Source: Syntrophorhabdaceae bacterium
GTDB lineage: Bacteria; Desulfobacterota; Syntrophorhabdia; Syntrophorhabdales; Syntrophorhabdaceae
NCBI GenBank assembly: GCA_963665295.1
Contig: OY762209.1
Span: 4,800,001-4,864,000, forward strand
DNA length: 64,000 nt
Reading direction: 5' to 3'
Numbering within the stretch: the stretch's first letter is position 1; each line of letters opens with the position of its first letter. Positions 25,877 through 49,680 of the stretch are shown piece after piece. The notes below the pieces were generated by a model. The model was not told the origin of the DNA and made no database searches. It worked only from the letters and a program-made list of their open reading frames with translations. The position numbers were made by a program, and so were the translations under genes.

Positions 25877-25909
25877 AAAGCTGTCCCTTCTTATCCTTGT
25901 GACATAAAT

Positions 25910-25968
25910 AAAAAAAACGCCCTCATCGGACGCCTTTGTCTCGCCTTCAATGACACCCCGTTGTGTCA
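25910..25968 (-). promoter_or_regulatory. ANTAR-type dual-hairpin antiterminator leader
   Basis: Minus strand: TGACAC-AACGGG-GTGTCA, linker, GAC-AAAGGC-GTC (both hexaloops A1/G4). Hairpin 2 overlaps the terminator GGCGTCC-GATGA-GGGCGTT-U tract. Confidence 0.85.
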
Positions 25969-25980
25969 AATTAGCAAATA

Positions 25981-26050: not shown

Positions 26051-26860
26051 TCACGAACCTTTCGCCGGCCCCCGGGCAGGTTCCTTCGGGTTCCGCCGCG
26101 CCATCGATTTCTTTTCCTTCCCCCTCCCGTCTTCCATAAAGAGATTCATAAGCCTTCTGAAATGCATGGAGGACTCTATGAACGTTCTAAAGTTAATCAA
26201 GAAACGGCCGGTTTGGTCCTCGAACCTTTCCTTCAACGCCGCGCTGTCGCAGATAATCTTTTCCGTGTCGACTTTCCCTCGTTCCGCCTTCATCCATTCT
26301 TCTATCATCAAATGGGTAACCTCCGGGTGAAATTGCAAACCGTAGGCGCTTCTTCCCATCCTGAATGCCTGATTCCTGCACGTCTTCCCGCGGGCCAGGA
26401 GCAAACCGCCTTCAGGAATGCCGAAGGTGTCCTCGTGCCATTCAAAGACCGTGAACTGCCGCGAAAAGTCCTTGAAGAGCGGGTCCTTCGCACCTTCGTC
26501 CGTCACATGCACAGGGTAGAACCCCACTTCCCTGCGAGCGGCTTTTACAACCTTCGCTCCACAAGTCTTTGCGAGAAGTTGCGCTCCCAGACATATGCCC
26601 AGCATGGGCAATTCGTCTATCAGCGTCCTCCGTATCAAATGCTCCTCTTCTTCAAGAAAAGGGTACCCGGCGATCTGGTACACATTCATGGGACCTCCGA
26701 GAACGATTACCGCGGCGAAGCTGTCGATGGACTCAGGCAGTCTCCCGCCGCTGCCGAGTTCGACGATTTCCAGGTCCCATCCGTCGTTTCCGAAGAATGT
26801 CCCGATGAGCCCCGCACCCTCCTGTTCCACATGTTTTATTATAAGAATCCTTCTGTCCAT
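26051..26860 (-). CDS. Class I glutamine amidotransferase-like protein
   Basis: VLGGPMNV, LGICLGAQL (Cys nucleophile), WHED, LQFHPE. Confidence 0.88.
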   Translation of the reverse strand: MDRRILIIKHVEQEGAGLIGTFFGNDGWDLEIVELGSGGRLPESIDSFAAVIVLGGPMNVYQIAGYPFLEEEEHLIRRTLIDELPMLGICLGAQLLAKTCGAKVVKAARREVGFYPVHVTDEGAKDPLFKDFSRQFTVFEWHEDTFGIPEGGLLLARGKTCRNQAFRMGRSAYGLQFHPEVTHLMIEEWMKAERGKVDTEKIICDSAALKERFEDQTGRFLINFRTFIESSMHFRRLMNLFMEDGRGKEKKSMARRNPKEPARGPAKGS

Positions 26861-27183
26861 TCGGAACCTCTGTTCACGCACGCACGTGCCGCCTTGAACG
26901 GCATCGTTCGGTATTCGCCCCTGTCTCTCTGAAACAGGCGACGATTGCCGTTCCGCGCTAATGCGAAAATATCGCTTCATATTATACAAGTACCTGTTCT
27001 GTGCGGATTGTTAACCGTCGGGAATATGAGTGTCCGGCGGGTACCCTTGACTGAGGGTACAAGGACGCATTATGGTTGGTTTAGGGCCGAACGTTACCGG
27101 TCTCGGGAAAGGACCGGGGCTATCCACCTGAATTTGCGCCATGCGCCCGATGGGCCGGCGGCACATGAAAGAGAGGAGAAACG

Positions 27184-41464: not shown

Positions 41465-43561
41465 TTAGAGCTTAAACAACAAATCCGTGTAGTTCGGCAC
41501 AGGCCACATATCCCTGGGAACTATGCCTTCTGCCGCGTCCACATCTACCCGCAGTGCCTGCATCACGGGAAACACTTTGTCGCGATACGCTTCAGCCTGT
41601 TTTACCACGTCGCTCGTGTCTTGCGCCTTTGACACCGCTCCCTCGAGCTTGGTGAGGGTTTTGTAGGCGGAAGTGAGCAGTGCATTCAGCTTTTTGAGCA
41701 GGTCCTGCTGGACCGAAACCGGGGCCGCCACGTTCTTGAAACTGGAAATGGAGTCCGCCAGGAAGGTTGCGTATTCGAGTCCTGCGGGTATGAACTGCTT
41801 TTTAGCCATATCGATGGCGGTGAGGGCCTCGATATTGATCTGTTTGGAATAGGCCTCCACGTACACGTCATAGCGGGAATGGAGTTCCTTGTGAGAAAAG
41901 ACCTCATATTTTTCAAAGAGTTTGAAGGCCTTGTCCGTAACAAAGGCTTTTAATGCGTCAACCGAGTTCCTTACATTGGGAAGACCGCGCTTTTCCGCTT
42001 CTACTACCCACTCGTCGGAATAGTTGTTCCCATTGAAGATAACACGGTTATGTTTCTTATAGATGTCCCTGATGATGGCCGCTGCTTCGGCGTTCTTGTC
42101 TTTCGCTTTTTCCAGGCGAGTGGCAATCTCGTCAAAGGCTTCCGCCGCGATGGTGTTCAGGGCCACGTTCGATCCCGCAACCGACTGCGCGGAGCCGACC
42201 ATTCTGAATTCGAACTTGTTGCCCGTAAAGGCGAAGGGAGAGGTCCTGTTGCGGTCCGTATTGTCCTTGGGAATAGGCGGCAGCGTATCTACGCCGACGT
42301 TTACGAATTGTGCGTCTTTCGTGGAGATCTTTTCGCCTTTCGCGATCTTCTCCAGGATTTCCGTCAACTCCTCGCCCATGAAGGCGGAGATGATGGCGGG
42401 AGGCGCTTCATTTGCGCCGAGACGGTGGTCATTCCCCGCCGTGGCACAGGTGGCGCGCAAGATATCGGAGTGCATGTCAACGGCCTTGAGCAATCCACTG
42501 ACCAATACGAGGAACTGCACATTTTCACCGGGGGTGGAACCGGGTTCCAACAGGTTGAAGCCGTCGTCCGTGGAGAGCGACCAGTTGTTGTGTTTGCCCG
42601 AACCGTTAATACCCGCGTAAGGCTTCTCGTGAAGCAGGCAAACCAGGTCGTGGCGCAGGGCAACTTTCTGCATGGTCTCCATCACGAGCTGATTGTGGTC
42701 GGTAGCGATATTGGTAGTGCCGAAAATGGGGGCCATCTCGTACTGGGCAGGCGCTACCTCGTTATGCTGGGTCTTGGAGGTAATGCCCATTTTCCACAGT
42801 TCCGTGTTAAGGTCGGTCATGTAATCGGAGACCCTGTCCTTGATGGCGCCGAAATATTGGTCCTCAAGTTCCTGGCCCTTGGGCGCGGGTGCGCCGAAGA
42901 TGGTCCGGCCCGTGAGCATGAGGTCGGTCCTGTCGAGATAGAACTTCTTGTCAACCAGAAAATATTCCTGCTCAGGACCTACGGTGGAGATCACCTTGGC
43001 GGAAGTACAATTGCCCAGAGCCCTGAGAACCCGCATCGTCTGCTTGGACACGGCCTTCATCGACCTCAGGAGGGGTGTCTTCTTGTCGAGAGCTTCCCCT
43101 TTGTAGGAGTAAAAAGCCGTGGGGATGGTAAGGGTCACGTTGCCGCTTTCATCGGTCTTCAAAAATGCGGGAGAGGTGCAGTCCCAGGCGGTGTACCCTC
43201 TTGCCTCGAAGGTAGCCCGAAGCCCGCCGCTTGGAAAGGAGGACGCGTCCGGCTCGCCCTGGATCAGTTGCTTGCCGGAAAACTCAAGGATCACGCTGCC
43301 GTCGGGAGCGGGAGATATGAATGAATCATGCTTCTCCGCCGTTGTCCCGGTCAGGGGCTGGAACCAGTGTGTGTAGTGGGTGGCGCCCTTCTCGATTGCC
43401 CAGTCCTTCATGGCGTTTGCCACCACATCCGCCACGTCGGGACGCAACGGGATGTCTTTGTCGATGGTTTCCTTCAGGGCCTTGTAAATCTGTTTGGGTA
43501 GCCGCTCTTTCATGGCCTTATCATTAAAAACGTTAGAACCGAAAACTTCTGTGAGCTCCAT
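41465..43561 (-). CDS. glnA: Glutamine synthetase type III
   Basis: [62 protein letters not shown]; start after GGAGG. Confidence 0.96.
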
Positions 43562-43729
43562 AGTGTCCTCCATTGCTATAATATATATCCTTAAAATCCC
43601 GGTCCTCGGCGCCGATACGCGTGTCGGGCCGGAATATTAATTCTAACAGGCCTCTGCCACATCTTACTGCGGCAGCGGATAGCCCCGTGAGACAATCCAT
43701 CAAAGGGTACCCTGTCGGAAAAGTATGTT

Positions 43730-43857
43730 TCTAGTCGAAAGACGTTGACCGTTTTGAACAGCGTTGTTCCTGATGGTTGAACAACCCTCTGCGATCACTG
43801 AGGGTCATATCCCGCCCGCACCACATTGTACGAACCTGCCAATACATTACTACAAGT
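43730..43857 (-). promoter_or_regulatory. Structured leader/promoter copy A (glnA)
   Basis: Aligns by eye with 45840-45953; contains CGTAC-AATGTG-GTGCG and GAAC-AACGCT-GTTC hexaloop hairpins. Confidence 0.65.
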
Positions 43858-43946
43858 AGAAAAATGATGCAAGACGTTAACCCATTAAAAACAGTGACTA
43901 GTTGATAAAACAAACGGTCGTCTTTCCGGGGCCCTCAGCCGCCTTC

Positions 43947-44288
43947 TCAGCCGATCGCTCCCACTCCCCGTTCCTCCGTGCGGATTCGGATGCATTCGGC
44001 AAGTTCAAGAACAAATATCTTCCCGTCTCCCACTTCTCCTGTCTGGGCGCCTTTCACGATCGCCTTGATGGTGGGCTCCACAAAATTCTCATTCACCGCG
44101 ATCTCGAGTCGCACCTTGCGGAGCAGGTTCCCCATCTCTCGCGCGCCCCTGTAAACCTCGGTGACCCCCATCTGCCTGCCGTGGCCCAGGACCTCGTTCA
44201 CAGTGAGGAGGTTCACGTCCGCCTTGTAGAGCTCCTGTTTCACGGCTTCAAGCCTGTCCGGTTTTATGATTGCGATTATCAGTTTCAT
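43947..44288 (-). CDS. glnK: P-II nitrogen regulator
   Basis: GHGRQ, YRG, GEVGDGKIFV, IRIRTEE; immediately downstream of amt. Confidence 0.95.
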   Translation of the reverse strand: MKLIIAIIKPDRLEAVKQELYKADVNLLTVNEVLGHGRQMGVTEVYRGAREMGNLLRKVRLEIAVNENFVEPTIKAIVKGAQTGEVGDGKIFVLELAECIRIRTEERGVGAIG

Positions 44289-44298
44289 GGTTGCCCCC

Positions 44299-45657
44299 CT
44301 ATTCTATAACAGTATAAGCATTTTCGTGATGCTGAGTGAGGTCGAGACCTATAATCTCATCCCGCTCAACGACCCTGACCTTGAGAATAAGATCAACGAT
44401 CTTGTAGATAATATAGCTGCCTACCAGACTGTATGCCATAATGACCACGACGGCAATCAACTGAATGAGGAACTGTTTGGGGTTTCCGTAGAAAAGACCG
44501 TCCGCTCCCGCCGGGTTTACCGCCTTCGACGCGAAAAGTCCCACCGCGAGGGTCCCCAGGATGCCTCCCACTCCATGGACGCCAAAGGCGTCGAGGGAAT
44601 CATCGTACCCGAGTTTCGGTTTCACTATGGCCACGGAGATATAGCATATCACACTCGCCGCAAAGCCGATGATCGCGGCGGAAAGGACCGTGACAAATCC
44701 GGACGCAGGCGTAATGGTCGCCAGTCCCGCTATGGACCCTGTGATCGTGCCGAAGAGGGTCGGTTTTTCGTTGAATATCCACTCGAGAGCCGCCCAGGTC
44801 ATGGCGGCGATCGCGGCGGCCGTGTGGGTCACCACGAGGGTGTGAACCGCAAGGCCGTTGGCCCCCAGGGCGCTGCCTGCGTTAAACCCGTACCACCCGA
44901 ACCATAAAAGGGCCGTACCCAGCACGGTAAAGGGAATATTGTGGGGAGAGACCGGTTTGTTGTCATAACCCGTCCTTTTTCCGATCACAAGGGCAGTGAC
45001 GAGGGCCGCCATACCCGCATTGATATGGACCACCGTGCCGCCCGCGAAATCAAGGACACCCATATCGCGAAGCCATCCCCCTACGCCCCATACCCAGTGA
45101 CACACGGGGTCATACACAAAGGTTGCCCAGAGCACGGTAAACAGAAGAAAGGCCGAAAACTTCATCCTCTCCGCAAAGGCGCCGATAATGAGGGCCGGGG
45201 TAATGATGGCGAACATGGCCTGAAAGATCATGAATGCCTCATGGGGAATCGTCGCCGCGTAATCCTTGAAAGGCAGAGAGCCCACGCCGTCAAGGCCGAG
45301 CCACGCAAATCCTCCCCAGAACCCCTTTGCGGGCGCAAATGAAAGGCTGTACCCGAAGAGAATCCACTGAGCCGTAATTACGCCGAGCACGATAAAACAT
45401 TGCATCAACACGCCAAGTACATTCTTGCGCCTTACCATGCCCCCATAGAAGAAAGCAAGTCCGGGGGTCATAAACATGACCAGGGCTATGGACACAAGCA
45501 TCCATGCCGTATCCCCCGTATCCACCGGTGATTTGGCCTGCGCACCGGTTTGCGCCACCCCCTGAACGGCCGCGGGAAGACCCGGATCCTCCGCAAAGCA
45601 AATCCCTGCGACCACCAGACCCAACAACAGCACTGCAACAACCGCATACTTCTTCAC
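44299..45657 (-). CDS. amtB: Ammonium transporter (copy 2)
   Basis: MTPGLAFFYGG, AERMKF, DFAGGTVVH, GFNAGS, DDSLDAFGVHG. Confidence 0.96.
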   Translation of the reverse strand: MKKYAVVAVLLLGLVVAGICFAEDPGLPAAVQGVAQTGAQAKSPVDTGDTAWMLVSIALVMFMTPGLAFFYGGMVRRKNVLGVLMQCFIVLGVITAQWILFGYSLSFAPAKGFWGGFAWLGLDGVGSLPFKDYAATIPHEAFMIFQAMFAIITPALIIGAFAERMKFSAFLLFTVLWATFVYDPVCHWVWGVGGWLRDMGVLDFAGGTVVHINAGMAALVTALVIGKRTGYDNKPVSPHNIPFTVLGTALLWFGWYGFNAGSALGANGLAVHTLVVTHTAAAIAAMTWAALEWIFNEKPTLFGTITGSIAGLATITPASGFVTVLSAAIIGFAASVICYISVAIVKPKLGYDDSLDAFGVHGVGGILGTLAVGLFASKAVNPAGADGLFYGNPKQFLIQLIAVVVIMAYSLVGSYIIYKIVDLILKVRVVERDEIIGLDLTQHHENAYTVIE

Positions 45658-45839
45658 TATGCACCTCCGTTTTTTTCGTGGAGCGCAAAGGTGTCTTGTC
45701 TTACCGGCCGTGGCATGACTTCCGTTTCGTCACAGTCTCTTAAAAGGATTTCCTCGAAGAATTCCAGGACCTGAGCACAGGACCCGGCCTGACTGACTGA
45801 CGGTTCACCCTCGTCTCTTTCGGGCCGAACATTCAGCCC

Positions 45840-45975
45840 TCCAGTCTCTAGGCTTTGACTGATTTGAACTGCGCTGTTGAATTCCCCTCGGGTCGGTGAG
45901 GGAGTGGTGTCGTCTGCACGCCTGTGTGCAAACCTTCTGTACCCTACGAGTAAACTTTTCCTTCTTTTGGTAACC
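45840..45975 (-). promoter_or_regulatory. Structured leader/promoter copy B (amtB2)
   Basis: TGCAC-ACAGGC-GTGCA, CCCTC..GAGGG, AAC-AGCGCA-GTT, CAGTC-N10-GACTG; upstream GGTTACCAAAA-N9-GTTTACTCGTA. Confidence 0.65.
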
Positions 45976-46125
45976 ATGGTACGGCAAAATATTCTGCGAA
46001 CAAGAATAACGGCGAGGACAAGGGGTGAAGTACCACTGACGAAAACTTATTAAACGTATATCGGGTGAAGGAGGGGCGCAGGGGGGACCGGCGTGAAGAC
46101 CGGTGAAGGACGGTAAGACAAATGA

Positions 46126-46213
46126 GTATACAGACAGCCGCGAGCCGAGGGCGAGGCGTCCCTTGAGGCGCATCCCCGTATCTCCCATCCGCGGCTCGCG
46201 GCTGTCTGTATAC
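46126..46213. repeat. Perfect 22-bp inverted repeat with a 44-bp spacer
   Basis: gtatacagacagccgcgagccg ... cggctcgcggctgtctgtatac. Confidence 0.9.
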
Positions 46214-46221
46214 CTTGTTTC

Positions 46222-46563
46222 TCAGCCTATGGCAGTGGTGCCCCGTTCCTCCGTTCGTATGCGAATGCATTCTCCAAGTTCAAGGACAAATATCTTCCCG
46301 TCCCCCACCGCGCCGGTCTGGGCCCCCTTCAGGATCGCCTTGACGGTAGGTTCCGCGAAATTATCGTTCACTGCAATCTCGAGCCGCACCTTGCGAAGCA
46401 AATTCCCCATTTCCCTGGCGCCCCTGTAGACCTCAGTGACACCCATCTGTCTGCCGTGGCCGAGGACCTCGTTTACAGTGAGGAGATTCACGTCTGCCTT
46501 GTAGAGCTCCTGTTTCACCGCTTCAAGTCTGTCCGGTTTAATTATGGCGATAATCAGTTTCAT
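46222..46563 (-). CDS. glnK: P-II nitrogen regulator
   Basis: Same motifs as the copy at 43947; the N-terminal ~66 aa are identical. Confidence 0.95.
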   Translation of the reverse strand: MKLIIAIIKPDRLEAVKQELYKADVNLLTVNEVLGHGRQMGVTEVYRGAREMGNLLRKVRLEIAVNDNFAEPTVKAILKGAQTGAVGDGKIFVLELGECIRIRTEERGTTAIG

Positions 46564-46574
46564 ATCCTCCCCTC

Positions 46575-47957
46575 CTATTCTATGACGGTATAGGCGTTTT
46601 CGTGGTGCTGGCTGAGGTCGAGACCGAGGGTCTCGTCCCTCTCGGGCACGCGCACCTTCATGACAAGGTCAACCACCTTGTAAATGATGTAGCTCACCAC
46701 GAAGCTGTACGCCACTGTTACCAGCACGGCAACCAACTGTATTACAAACTGTTTCGGGTTCCCGAAGAAGAGGCCGTTTGCACCGTCCGGGTTTATCGCT
46801 TTGGAAGCAAAGAGACCTGTGGCAAGGGCACCCCATATTCCGCCCACGCAGTGGACGCCGAACACATCAAGGGCATCGTCGTACCCGAATTTGGGTTTTA
46901 TCCACGAGACAGCTATGAAGCAGAAGACGCTCACGCACACCCCGATCGCGATGGCAGAGAGGGCGCTCACGTACCCCGCCGCGGGGGTAATCGCCACGAG
47001 TCCCGCAACGGCCCCTGTCGCGGTGCCGAGCATGGTGGGTTTATCGTTGAACATCCAGTCTATAAGAGCCCATGTCAAGCCTGCGGCAGCGGCGGCCGTG
47101 TTGGTCACCACAAAAGCGTTTACCGACAGGCCGTTCGCGGCGAGAGCGCTCCCTGCGTTGAACCCGAACCACCCGAACCAGAGAAGGGCAGTGCCCAGCA
47201 CGGTAAAGGGGAGGTTGTGAGGCAGTATGGCTTTGTGGTTGGAACCGCCGTTCCGCTTCCTGATCACCACGGCAGTCATGAGGGCCGCAATACCCGCATT
47301 GATATGGACTACAGTTCCCCCTGCAAAGTCGAGGGCGCCCATCTCGCGCAGCCATCCTCCCACTCCCCAGACCCAATGGCAGACGGGGTCGTACACGAAG
47401 GTCGCCCAGAGAATCATAATCACCACAAAGGCCGAGAACTTCATTCTCTCTGCAAAGGCACCGATGATAAGCGCCGGGGTGATGACGGCGAACATGGCCT
47501 GGAAGATCATGAAGGCCTGGTGAGGGATCGTGGCCGCATAGTCCTTGAAGGGTTCAAGTCCTACCCCGCTCAAGCCTATCCAGTCGAATCCGCCCCAGAA
47601 CCCCTTTGCAGGTCCGAATGCAAGGCTGTAACCGTAAAGCACCCACTGCACGCTGATGATGCAGAGCAGGGTGAAGCATTGCATGAGAACCCCGAGAACG
47701 TTCTTACGACCCACCATTCCCCCATAGAAGAAGGCCAGCCCGGGAGTCATAAGCATGACCAGCGCTGTCGAGATAAGGACCCACGCCGTGTCGCCGGGGT
47801 CTACCTTGGGCGCTGCCTGAGCGGGCGCCGCCGGCTGCGTGGCGGGTGCCGTCTGTGACGCCGCCGGGGCCGGGACCACCTTCGGTTCTTCCGCATATGC
47901 AACCCCAATCAACCCGATGAACAAAAGAACCAAAAGAAGAGCAGTAAGTCGTTTCAT
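46575..47957 (-). CDS. amtB: Ammonium transporter (copy 1)
   Basis: MTPGLAFFYGG, DFAGGTVVH, WFGFNAGS, DDALDVFGVH. Confidence 0.96.
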   Translation of the reverse strand: MKRLTALLLVLLFIGLIGVAYAEEPKVVPAPAASQTAPATQPAAPAQAAPKVDPGDTAWVLISTALVMLMTPGLAFFYGGMVGRKNVLGVLMQCFTLLCIISVQWVLYGYSLAFGPAKGFWGGFDWIGLSGVGLEPFKDYAATIPHQAFMIFQAMFAVITPALIIGAFAERMKFSAFVVIMILWATFVYDPVCHWVWGVGGWLREMGALDFAGGTVVHINAGIAALMTAVVIRKRNGGSNHKAILPHNLPFTVLGTALLWFGWFGFNAGSALAANGLSVNAFVVTNTAAAAAGLTWALIDWMFNDKPTMLGTATGAVAGLVAITPAAGYVSALSAIAIGVCVSVFCFIAVSWIKPKFGYDDALDVFGVHCVGGIWGALATGLFASKAINPDGANGLFFGNPKQFVIQLVAVLVTVAYSFVVSYIIYKVVDLVMKVRVPERDETLGLDLSQHHENAYTVIE

Positions 47958-47975
47958 TTAATACCTCCTGTTTTA

Positions 47976-48103
47976 AAATAAAAAGGAGGCGTCTTTAATC
48001 CATCTTTGGATAGAGACGCCTCCGTCTTAAAAACAAAATAAAAAACGCTCCAGGCACCCTACCGGGGTACCGGAACGCCGTTGTCAACCGCACATCAGTG
48101 TGC
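47976..48103 (-). promoter_or_regulatory. ANTAR-type leader with two tandem terminators
   Basis: GCAC-ACTGAT-GTGC and GAC-AACGGC-GTT, the latter overlapping terminator 1; AGAC-GGAGGC-GTCT overlapping terminator 2 (GGAGGCGTCT...AGACGCCTCC-TTTTTATTTT). Confidence 0.85.
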
Positions 48104-48265
48104 CCTTTTGCTTCCTTACATAGGTACAAGTAAACCGTCCACTATTTTGGTAACCTCCGGCCCCGATTCGAACAAAACACTTAAGAATTAGGGTTTCGAA
48201 CCGATAAAAACATAACGGGAATAATTCTCATAAAGAACTTCAAAGCCGGGGAAACAACAACTGCG

Positions 48266-48514
48266 ATGGAAACTGAGGATCGGCGTATTTTATTCATGTT
48301 CGGCAATGATAATATAATACTTGAAATGTCTCTCGACTCCTATGAGCCCGGGGATATCAAGGATACAAAGGAGCGGCTCGCCCAGCAGATGCAGTGCGCG
48401 CCGGCGGACATCGCCATAAGGATAACAGGCGTCAAAGGCGGCAGAGCCAATAAAGGATCCTCACTCCATTTTTCACTTATCGATTTCAATACCATAAAAA
48501 ACGTAATCAAGTAG
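48266..48514 (+). CDS. Hypothetical protein
   Basis: 82-aa ORF divergent from amtB1; no family recognised. Confidence 0.55.
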   Translation: METEDRRILFMFGNDNIILEMSLDSYEPGDIKDTKERLAQQMQCAPADIAIRITGVKGGRANKGSSLHFSLIDFNTIKNVIK

Positions 48515-48651
48515 CTCTCCCGGAAGGCATTCCCGAAACGCCGCAGACATCAGGCGAAGGCCGGGCGACACTGAGGGCGGCCCTGTCCCGACGGGCGTCA
48601 AAGGCCCGTGTAATCATTGACAACGCCCCCCTCTTCTGTTAATGATCTTGT

Positions 48652-49680
48652 ATGGTTGACAAATTGGCATTTTCAGGGGACCTGGCGACGACTGCCATGG
48701 GTATCATGCCCCATGAAAATGTGGATGAAGCTTTGGAGCTGGCCTTTACCATGGACATCCCGTTCTGGCCTCAGCTTCCGAGACTCTCCTTTTATGAAGA
48801 CATGTATGCCCAGGCTATGGCCGGATTTCCCGGTGTCGTGACGGACGCGGCGAAAGGGAGAATTTCTGTCGATACGGACGGCTTCTTCAATGAAATACCG
48901 GAATACCTCGAAAAAGAAGAGGACCCGGATTATTTCAGGCTCACCGGGGAGTATTCCCATACGTACCGGCGCTTTCTCTCGAAGGACCTCTCCTCCTGCC
49001 GCTCGGTGAGAGGACAGGTGATAAGCCCCGTAAGCCTTGCGTTGAAAATCACGGACGAAAGAGGCATACCTATAGTATACAACGACGAAATGCGCGCCGT
49101 CGCGTTCACCTTCATCCGGAACAAGGTAAACGCCCAGTACGAAGAACTGCGGGAAAAGAACGGGCGGGCCTTCGTCTGGGTAGACGACCCCGGCATCGAG
49201 TTTATCTTCAGTGCCATGTGCGGGTACGACAATATGAAGGCGAAAGAGGAACTGACCGCATTTTTTGACGGCGTGGAGGGTCCCCGGGGGCTCCACCTCT
49301 GCGGGCGGCCGGACTGGGACTTTCTGCTCTCTCTGAATATCGAGATACTCTCATTCAACGCCTATGCCTTCGGAGACATGTTCGTCACCTACGACCGTGT
49401 AAGAGATTTTCTGGAGCGGGGCAATATCATAAGCTGGGGTATAGTGCCCACCTATTATGAAGAATTTTCCCGGGAGGACGTGGAAGGCCTCGGAAGGAGA
49501 CTCACTGCAATGTGGGGCGTCCTGGAAGAGAAAGGGGTGACAAGGGAAATCATAGCCCGTCAGGCCATCCTCGCGCCGGCCACGTGCAACTTGCTCAACC
49601 CCGACAGGACCTCAACGGTGGAGAGTGCTTTCAAACTCCTCAATGAGCTGTCACTTCACCTGAAAGAGAGATATATATGA
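48652..49680 (+). CDS. Core (single-barrel) methionine synthase-like protein, MesB type
   Basis: TAMGIMPH..DIPFWPQLP..SFYEDMYAQ..GFPG, DDPG, HLCG and PATC (MetE-type Zn ligands H-x-C...C); 342 aa. Confidence 0.65.
   Translation: MVDKLAFSGDLATTAMGIMPHENVDEALELAFTMDIPFWPQLPRLSFYEDMYAQAMAGFPGVVTDAAKGRISVDTDGFFNEIPEYLEKEEDPDYFRLTGEYSHTYRRFLSKDLSSCRSVRGQVISPVSLALKITDERGIPIVYNDEMRAVAFTFIRNKVNAQYEELREKNGRAFVWVDDPGIEFIFSAMCGYDNMKAKEELTAFFDGVEGPRGLHLCGRPDWDFLLSLNIEILSFNAYAFGDMFVTYDRVRDFLERGNIISWGIVPTYYEEFSREDVEGLGRRLTAMWGVLEEKGVTREIIARQAILAPATCNLLNPDRTSTVESAFKLLNELSLHLKERYI

Follow-up and report, generated by a model that had tools for sequence, protein, structure and literature searches.

Two leader RNAs with a common four-hairpin fold, copy A and copy B, lie on the minus strand of a 64,000-nucleotide stretch of the genome of a Syntrophorhabdaceae bacterium (assembly GCA_963665295.1, contig OY762209.1, positions 4,800,001 to 4,864,000; hereafter the window). 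Copy A precedes the gene of a type III glutamine synthetase (glnA) and copy B precedes the pair amtB2-glnK2, and both belong to a leader family, called type 2 here, whose fold is conserved with covariation and which is tied to nitrogen genes. We propose, with a probability of roughly 0.7, that the type 2 leaders are four-hairpin RNAs that are bound by a GAF-GAF-ANTAR protein, respond to nitrogen and work without a terminator. The initial annotation of this DNA, made from the sequence alone, had regarded the two copies as either a non-canonical ANTAR target or a nitrogen-responsive cis RNA or small RNA of an undescribed kind; the first of these assignments is now supported by a single ANTAR gene in the genome, by the co-occurrence of RNA and protein across relatives, by the loop sequences and by canonical sibling leaders.

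Open reading frames and Pfam matches place the genes and leaders on the minus strand in the order amtB1, glnK1, copy B, amtB2, glnK2, copy A and the type III glutamine synthetase gene (Table 1). Copy B is contained in the 564-nt spacer between glnK1 and amtB2 and copy A in the 373-nt spacer between glnK2 and the glutamine synthetase gene, the distance from the end of the element to the start codon being 167 nt in A and 181 nt in B. The primary similarity of the two is low: blastn-short gave no cross-match between A and B and no further copies in the genome. Fifteen type 2 leaders served as seeds of a covariance model, R1, which leaves out a promoter-like DNA box found upstream of them and the divergent copy E (both described below) and was searched against the organism's own genome, 96 genomes of the same order (Syntrophorhabdales) and 146 genomes sampled from the other orders of the phylum. 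In the own genome only A and B matched at E<=0.01, the next best hit having 18.9 bits (E=0.65), and within the order 105 matches were found in 60 of the 96 genomes. As R1 was built without the box and still matches this often, the likeness between A and B is not a product of chance, and the two copies with four hairpins in the same order, P1-Pi-P2-P3, described in the initial annotation are borne out. None of the 146 genomes of other orders had a match in a scan with stricter filters and 25 candidates scored per genome. The genes behind type 2 leaders encode type III glutamine synthetase, a type I-like glutamine synthetase, AmtB, a glutamine amidotransferase and a small protein that belongs to no Pfam family; the element always points towards, and directly precedes, nitrogen genes.

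The pairing was evaluated on an alignment (A6) of 61 of the 105 R1 matches, 15 of them the seeds, which was compared on five measures with 500 shuffles of itself and with versions in which the pairing partners were slid by 1-3 columns. Standard pairs occupy 87.2% of the 1167 pair cells against 82.1% in the shuffles, double changes occur at 13 of the 20 pairs, and no shuffle (0/500) equalled the real alignment on any measure; sliding the partners lowers the pairing to 27-48%. In P1, five of the seven pairs covary and the top two are invariant. Pair 7-20 of this stem, as an example, is GC in 45 leaders, AU in 8, GU in 7 and UG in 1, and is never unpaired. The compensatory changes that had been noticed in this stem between the two copies, C-G in A for U-A in B and U-G in A for C-G in B, are correct. 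Four of the five Pi pairs covary, mostly through one outer pair (CG 38, UA 8), and 13 U-G cells are found at pair 43-57. In P2, with the strands GAAC/GUUC, three of the four pairs never vary and the outer fourth is a G-C pair in 51 rows and is open in 9. Both P1 and Pi are also present in the single-sequence folds of A and of B. The search of the Desulfobacterota on which an RNA role had been made to depend thus yielded homologues, confined to the 60 genomes of the same order, and covariation, in P1 and partly in Pi and P3.

Hairpins of this kind could in principle be palindromic DNA operators of a transcription factor that have no role in RNA. P1 resembles the NtrC-type site TGCAC-N6-GTGCA, is a perfect DNA palindrome in copy B, and the elements adjoin the promoter-like box. 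The stems, however, contain many G-U pairs as well as exchanges of G-C for A-U, on one strand only, R1 scores 22-26 bits on the reverse strand and 65-102 bits on the forward strand, and sibling leaders end in intrinsic terminators. Because of the G-U pairs and of scores that are much lower on the reverse strand, the element is read as an RNA transcribed from the minus strand and not as a DNA palindrome, which makes the operator explanation highly improbable.

The loops connect this RNA with the ANTAR targets. Hexaloops with adenine at the first and guanine at the fourth position (A1/G4) had been described on two of the hairpins, and this is correct for P1 (6 nt in 61/61 leaders, A1 in 55/61, G4 in 61/61) and P2 (6 nt in 60/61, A1 in 48/61, G4 in 60/61). 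The two other loops begin in the same way, that of Pi being 10 nt long in 48/61 leaders, with A1 in 58/61 and G4 in 61/61, and that of P3 being 9-10 nt long in 48/61, with A1 and G4 in 49/61 each. The sequence A-N-N-G, which is the ANTAR signature, therefore opens all four loops and not just two. The CCCUC/GAGGG stem of Pi, interpreted in the initial annotation as an insert that splits an ANTAR pair, does lie between the hexaloop hairpins; judged by their loops, which carry the same signature, Pi and P3 seem to be partner hairpins rather than inert inserts. The median linkers are 7 nt between P1 and Pi, 15 nt between Pi and P2, and 5 nt between P2 and P3. In the Enterococcus faecalis eut sites the linkers are 5-12 nt long, and linkers of 3 or 14 nt impaired induction, according to the part of the eut study that deals with spacing (PMC3369931). 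As the hexaloop hairpins P1 and P2 each precede an A-N-N-G partner at ANTAR-like spacing, the leader is described as two tandem dual-hairpin units, which would form the binding sites P1+Pi and P2+P3.

The genome contains exactly one ANTAR-domain gene (PF03861, 76 bits). Its product of 410 aa has the domain order GAF-GAF-ANTAR, GAF1 matching the PtsP model NF008283 (E=2e-37) and GAF2 the NifA model TIGR01817, in the N-terminal GAF of NifA (E=9e-28). The closest solved chains are PtsP GAF domains, and the ANTAR domain matches Rv1626 and NasR. The GAF domains of PtsP and NifA respond to glutamine and 2-oxoglutarate, and it is from these responses that we infer nitrogen status as the signal. Full-length orthologs (E<=1e-60) are present in 72 of the 96 genomes of the order, and R1 matches occur in 58 of these 72 and in only 2 of the 24 that have none. 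In genus g7 the two go together throughout, R1 matches being found in all 14 genomes that possess the ortholog and in none of the 6 that lack it. Such repeated joint loss of the RNA and the ANTAR gene within genera is hard to explain otherwise. At least 10 relatives have a box and leader 2-5 kb downstream of the ANTAR gene and in the same orientation.

Copies A and B had been taken as the sole pair, and this is not the case: at least five leaders in the genome (A-E) are preceded by the box, and a second covariance model, R2, built from type 1 leaders, adds two further attenuators. The box is a conserved promoter-like DNA element of 31-32 nt, GGTTAMC-N16/17-TACTYGTA, and the shared word TACTYGTAG that had been counted as the 5' part of the leader is its 3' end and lies outside the fold, the box of copy A ending 13 nt ahead of the start of the R1 match. 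A loose pattern, GGTTA[AC]C-N12-17-TAC-NN-GTA, matched five times in the 5.5-Mb genome, where about two matches are expected by chance, and all five contain TACTYGTA, with hairpins of the same kind behind them. Among 40 genomes of relatives, 44 distinct sites fit a stricter form, GGTTA[AC]C-N14-17-TACT[TC]GTA. Sorted by eye, 20 of them precede type 1 leaders and 16 type 2 leaders; 4 sites within coding sequence and 4 that could not be classified were dropped.

The type 1 leaders are canonical. A U-tailed terminator overlaps or directly follows P2 in 20/20 of them, 97.5% of their P1 and terminator cells are standard pairs, and their P1 motif is identical to that of the type 2 leaders. One example in the window, copy C, is the leader of amtB1-glnK1 and consists of the P1 hexaloop hairpin, the P2 hexaloop hairpin overlapping a U-tailed terminator, and a second hexaloop hairpin with terminator just before the ribosome-binding site. 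It folds at -66.3 kcal/mol (z -4.63; 0/200 shuffles as good), opens with TTTACTTGTA, a word common to A and B, and shares a longer upstream block with B. In C and in copy D, which lies elsewhere in the genome, P1 and P2 are about 5 nt apart and the 3' half of P2 doubles as the 5' half of a strong terminator with a U-tail, a layout that, by its sequence, is that of a textbook ANTAR attenuator (Ramesh et al. 2012, PMC3369931).

Upstream of type 2 leaders in relatives the box is kept: it is found with at most three substitutions before 36 of the 61 aligned matches, and the other 25 mostly have a sigma-70-like promoter whose -35 element is the same TTGTAA word (by eye). In this second layout, cTTGTAAAt-N17-TAtAaT, the -10 element ends 2-6 nt ahead of the R1 match, which opens 3 nt before P1. 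Some relatives carry the box and the sigma-70-like promoter together, with the TTGTA of the box doubling as the -35 element, and in one genus a GTTAACC word stands just 12 nt before TTGTAA. Transcription would start at the box, and in either promoter layout P1 is predicted to lie within about 10 nt of the 5' end of the RNA. Two established promoter types do not account for the box in the own genome: a GG-N10-GC word of the sigma-54 kind overlaps the copy A box and is not conserved in B or C, and a sigma-70 reading lacks a -10 hexamer at the right spacing (both by eye).

Whichever layout applies, P1 is predicted to stand at the 5' end of the RNA or no more than about 10 nt from it, and this is also what would be expected of a structured 5' untranslated region (UTR) that no ANTAR protein binds and that serves as a 5' stabiliser or as the site of another protein. 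Nitrogen control would then come from the box only, which alone could confer regulation, and the 14 genomes that have the ANTAR ortholog and no type 2 leader would be readily accommodated. Such a UTR would not explain why a match is missing from 22 of the 24 genomes that lack the ortholog, among them 6/6 in one genus, why the A1/G4 signature occurs in four loops, or why P1 has the same motif as in terminator-coupled type 1 leaders, and we regard it as unlikely.

Several observations weigh against the proposed binding of type 2 leaders by the ANTAR protein and against the fold on which it depends. The single-sequence folding energies are unremarkable in comparison with shuffles (z -1.24 for A and -0.32 for B), and since A and B fold no better than shuffles and share little sequence, the case rests on the comparison with other leaders. 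The alignment used for this comparison is biased towards the proposed pairs, having been fitted to the model, and RNAalifold predicts P1 only, on a MAFFT alignment and on the model-fitted one alike. None of the four P2 pairs covaries, so that P2 might be a sequence motif and not a helix, and all four P3 pairs covary, yet only 78% of their cells are paired. The Pi and P3 loops have 9-10 nt and are not hexaloops; more than 40 nt, including the ~20-nt Pi hairpin, lie between P1 and P2, and a linker extended to 14 nt was already enough to cut induction drastically in the EutV system (PMC3369931). On the side of the distribution, 14 genomes have the ortholog without an R1 match, two have a match without the ortholog (G002, 34 bits; G033, 58.9 bits, in a genome 84% complete), and related genomes are non-independent samples, so the co-occurrence counts overstate independence. 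Finally, no output device was found: between element and start codon there is no intrinsic terminator in any of the 61 type 2 leaders, and a crude test for a switch that sequesters the Shine-Dalgarno sequence showed no clear shift. In this test, on 57 leaders (4/61 were dropped for want of a called start codon), the mean unpaired probability of the Shine-Dalgarno sequence was 0.37 in the free fold and 0.43 with the four hairpins forced, rising in 40/57.

The search for terminators gave a consistent picture. Of the 61 leaders, six gave one candidate each, at or past the called start codon in every case; a consensus terminator scan of 43400-48700 returned 5 sites against 6.3 expected, none of them in the A or B leader; and, as first observed, no U-tailed terminator follows either copy. 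Owing to this absence, the output of A and B cannot be classical antitermination. Pi with a U-rich tract was considered as a weak terminator, at least three U being found within 6 nt after Pi in 39/61 leaders, and was rejected in view of its 5-bp stem and 10-nt loop and of the amtB class, copy B included, which does not have so many U. Small RNAs that act as ANTAR decoys are known (EutX/Rli55), and a type 2 RNA might likewise bind the protein as a decoy or sponge, setting the threshold for type 1 leaders, or as a separately ending small RNA, without being a cis-regulator. The lack of a downstream terminator and of a consistent change in Shine-Dalgarno access would be in line with this, as would the sequence past P3, which is not conserved even within a genus, and a word resembling TATAAT that follows the element in some amtB-class leaders of relatives (both by eye). 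A decoy nevertheless appears improbable, given the constant position of the element directly upstream of, and oriented towards, nitrogen genes, the short distance of 14-36 nt from its end to the start codon in many relatives, and the absence of a terminator that would set the 3' end of a small RNA.

Under the preferred reading, the type 2 leader would be a ~100-nt structured 5' RNA between the promoter-like box and a nitrogen-assimilation gene, its likeliest ligand being the single GAF-GAF-ANTAR protein of the genome, which would report nitrogen status (2-oxoglutarate and/or glutamine) after transcription start. In the type 1 siblings, P1 and P2 would compete with U-tailed terminators, so that binding would give classical antitermination. 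In A and B the bound protein may shield the long untranslated leader from premature Rho-dependent termination or from nucleases, a guess that is weakly held, and in those relatives where the element ends shortly before the start codon it might instead modulate ribosome loading.

Rfam gave no match at gathering score in the whole window and nothing relevant at E<=10 around A and B; around copy C matches were at chance level only, the best being BTnc201 with 31 bits against a threshold of 105. A conserved structured leader ahead of nitrogen-assimilation genes brings to mind a metabolite-sensing riboswitch, for example one for glutamine or 2-oxoglutarate, and the glutamine riboswitch (glnA RNA) is likewise a structured leader before glnA. 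A and B differ from it in being made of independent hairpins without a junction. Conservation is concentrated in the terminal loops and closing pairs of these hairpins, not in junctions or internal loops, no Rfam riboswitch is found at E<=10 around A and B, the presence of the element tracks a protein gene, and there is no expression platform, all of which leaves the riboswitch very little probability.

The closest known systems are the dual-hairpin RNAs EutV/eut, NasR/nasF and AmiR/amiE. ANTAR targets are defined, in the relevant sections of Ramesh et al. 2012, by two stem-loops with A1/G4 hexaloops and by conserved closing pairs needed for binding (PMC3369931). Copies A and B have two stem-loops of at least 3 bp (P1 with 7 pairs, P2 with 4), A1/G4 hexaloops on P1 and P2, and an ANTAR protein encoded in the same genome; a short linker is found within P1+Pi and within P2+P3 and not between P1 and P2, and the overlap with a terminator, seen in 20/20 type 1 siblings, is absent. 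As far as the published descriptions of the three systems go, A and B are thus alike to them in hexaloops, closing pairs and association with nitrogen genes, and the type 1 siblings match their layout fully, including the P2/terminator overlap. A and B differ in having the hexaloop hairpins more than 40 nt apart with a hairpin between, in the partner hairpins with loops of 9-10 nt and in lacking a terminator, and the regulators differ too: response-regulator, NIT or AmiC-controlled proteins there, a presumed GAF-GAF-ANTAR protein here. ANTAR sites have been reported upstream of P-II, ammonium-transporter and glutamine-synthetase genes, and GAF-sensor ANTAR proteins were described as common, with none characterised as of that account (Ramesh et al. 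2012, PMC3369931).

In Geobacter sulfurreducens, which is of the same broad lineage (delta-Proteobacteria), the ANTAR protein GnfR of the GnfK/GnfR system controls the glnK and amtB leaders and acts on nif, glnK and amtB after initiation (Ueki and Lovley 2010, PMC2995071). As presented there, GnfR is a phosphorylated response regulator whose targets have sigma-54 promoters, the motif CAGGCAANGGCGCC and terminators; in the leaders described here there is no conserved sigma-54 promoter, the box is a different one, and A and B have no terminator. Many actinobacterial ANTAR-target RNAs are reported to lie in 5' UTRs without a predicted terminator, as A and B do; some of them cover the ribosome-binding site and so repress translation (Mehta et al. 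2021, PMC8164766). The genes listed in that survey serve mostly transport and carbon metabolism, and A and B have four hairpins; repression of the covering kind does not suit them, because the elements end 167 and 181 nt from the start codon. The ANTAR control of nitrogen-gene leaders is therefore already known and the type 1 leaders are ordinary members, and what is new is the order-wide, four-loop, terminator-less architecture, the GAF-GAF-ANTAR regulator, and the associated box and sigma-like gene. The literature consulted contains no description of an ANTAR system in Syntrophorhabdus, nor of a GAF-ANTAR protein tied to 2-oxoglutarate or nitrogen signals.

The sigma-like gene directly follows the GAF-GAF-ANTAR gene and encodes a divergent protein of 198 aa resembling extracytoplasmic function (ECF) sigma factors. 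It matches TIGR02937 (sigma70-ECF) with E=4.8e-10 and 39.3 bits, below the cut-off of 42.9, over residues 28-188 and profile positions 3-160 of 165, and in Pfam it has weak region-4 and GerE matches only. Of the 96 genomes of the order, 66 have an ortholog of it, among them 64 of the 72 with the ANTAR ortholog; in 59 of these 64 the two genes are on one contig within about 3.5 kb. In several relatives the box starts 19-50 nt past the stop codon of the sigma-like gene. The protein is, as a lead, a candidate reader of the GGTTAMC-N16-TACTYGTA box. In several relatives (G003, G011, G012, G014, G019, G020, G022 and others) the sigma-like match crosses a single in-frame TGA, upstream of which the frames are open for 746-792 aa; this TGA is probably the overlapping stop of the preceding gene, with the true start of the sigma-like gene later.

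Table 1. Leaders, boxes and genes discussed in the text. Positions are those of the window, except where the prefix C1 marks genome coordinates.
Feature	Position	Strand	Evidence
Copy A, type 2 leader RNA upstream of type III glnA	43729-43837	minus	R1, 91.2 bits
Copy A hairpins	P1 43815-43834, Pi 43785-43804, P2 43756-43769, P3 43733-43750	minus	
Copy A box, GGTTAAC-N17-TACTTGTA	43851-43882	minus	one of 5 regular-expression matches in genome
Type III glutamine synthetase gene, downstream of copy A	41465-43573	minus	Pfam GSIII_N, E=5.9e-80
Copy B, type 2 leader RNA upstream of amtB2-glnK2	45839-45935	minus	R1, 80.5 bits
Copy B hairpins	P1 45913-45932, Pi 45885-45902, P2 45866-45879, P3 45843-45860	minus	
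Copy B box, GGTTACC-N16-TACTCGTA	45945-45975	minus	regular-expression match in genome
amtB2, downstream of copy B	44299-45657	minus	Pfam Ammonium_transp, E=2.9e-130
glnK2, after amtB2	43947-44288	minus	Pfam P-II, E=2.5e-25
Copy C, type 1 leader of amtB1-glnK1	47985-48107	minus	R2 match 48036-48107, 49.6 bits
Copy C box	48125-48155	minus	regular-expression match in genome
amtB1, downstream of copy C	46575-47957	minus	Pfam
glnK1, after amtB1	46222-46563	minus	Pfam
Copy D, box and canonical type 1 leader, two terminators	C1:2646786-2646902	plus	R2, 57.3 bits
Copy E, divergent type 2-like leader	26873-27016 (box 26985-27016, element 26873-26972)	minus	box match
Class-I glutamine amidotransferase gene, downstream of copy E	26054-26860	minus	Pfam GATase, E=1.2e-21
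Sixth leader, type 1-like	C1:3152386-3152501	plus	R2, 36.5 bits
Type 1-like attenuator	25908-25970	minus	R2, 28.5 bits, E=3.5e-4
Divergent ECF-like sigma gene (198 aa), directly after the GAF-GAF-ANTAR gene	C1:3151790-3152383	plus	TIGR02937

The remaining leaders of the genome are listed in Table 1 together with those described above. Copy D precedes a small basic open reading frame of about 76-101 aa with a CxxC pair, after which a convergent gene follows. Copy E was not accepted as a full member of the type 2 family, since R1 gave it only 14.9 bits with the filters off, and is kept as a divergent relative; the orthologous glutamine amidotransferase genes of relatives are preceded by strong type 2 leaders. 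The box of the sixth leader, GACTTGTA, has one mismatch and shares nucleotides with the stop codon of the sigma-like gene. After the box come P1, P2 and a terminator-like hairpin whose U-tail is poor, and the gene behind this leader encodes a signal-peptide-like N-terminus. The remaining attenuator has two A1/G4 hexaloop hairpins and a U-tailed terminator after a promoter-like site, TTGACA-N17-TAATCT, and the ANTAR regulon may through it reach beyond nitrogen genes. The gene cluster behind this attenuator resembles mvhD and metF (by eye).

Some further features accompany the leaders. Directly after P3 of copy B, at about 45818-45835 on the minus strand, there is a fifth hairpin, GGGCUGA...UCGGCCC, which recurs only in the amtB-class leaders of relatives, with a stem sequence that differs between genomes (by eye). 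A long GC-rich imperfect inverted repeat at 46122-46216 (minus strand), ~6 nt past the glnK1 stop codon and without a U-tail, gave chance-level matches to miRNA families in Rfam and may be the structure in which the amtB1-glnK1 transcript ends. In relatives, many type 2 leaders precede a small protein of at least 85 aa with a conserved N-terminal SLRHFP-like motif; a hand-translated N-terminal piece of 56 aa matched no Pfam family, and the protein may represent an unknown nitrogen-regulated family.

A more far-reaching form of the proposal is possible, and we hold it only tentatively: two dimers of a GAF-GAF-ANTAR protein sensing 2-oxoglutarate or glutamine would sit on the four-loop platform and activate without a terminator, forming a self-contained circuit together with an ECF-like sigma factor that reads the box. 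If this were true, activation might, for example, result from keeping Rho or nucleases off the RNA or from a processive action on RNA polymerase, and in Syntrophorhabdales this nitrogen circuit would replace the NtrBC/sigma-54 scheme. The locus gives one GAF-ANTAR protein a defined, predicted regulon, with two leader classes in one genome, one coupled to terminators and the other not; the PtsP-like and NifA-like GAF domains suggest candidate effectors, and a candidate dedicated sigma factor is offered together with its promoter. The covariance models allow about a hundred unannotated leaders to be annotated in the order, and the system bears on sensing by GAF-ANTAR proteins, on ANTAR regulation without a terminator and on nitrogen control in syntrophic Desulfobacterota.

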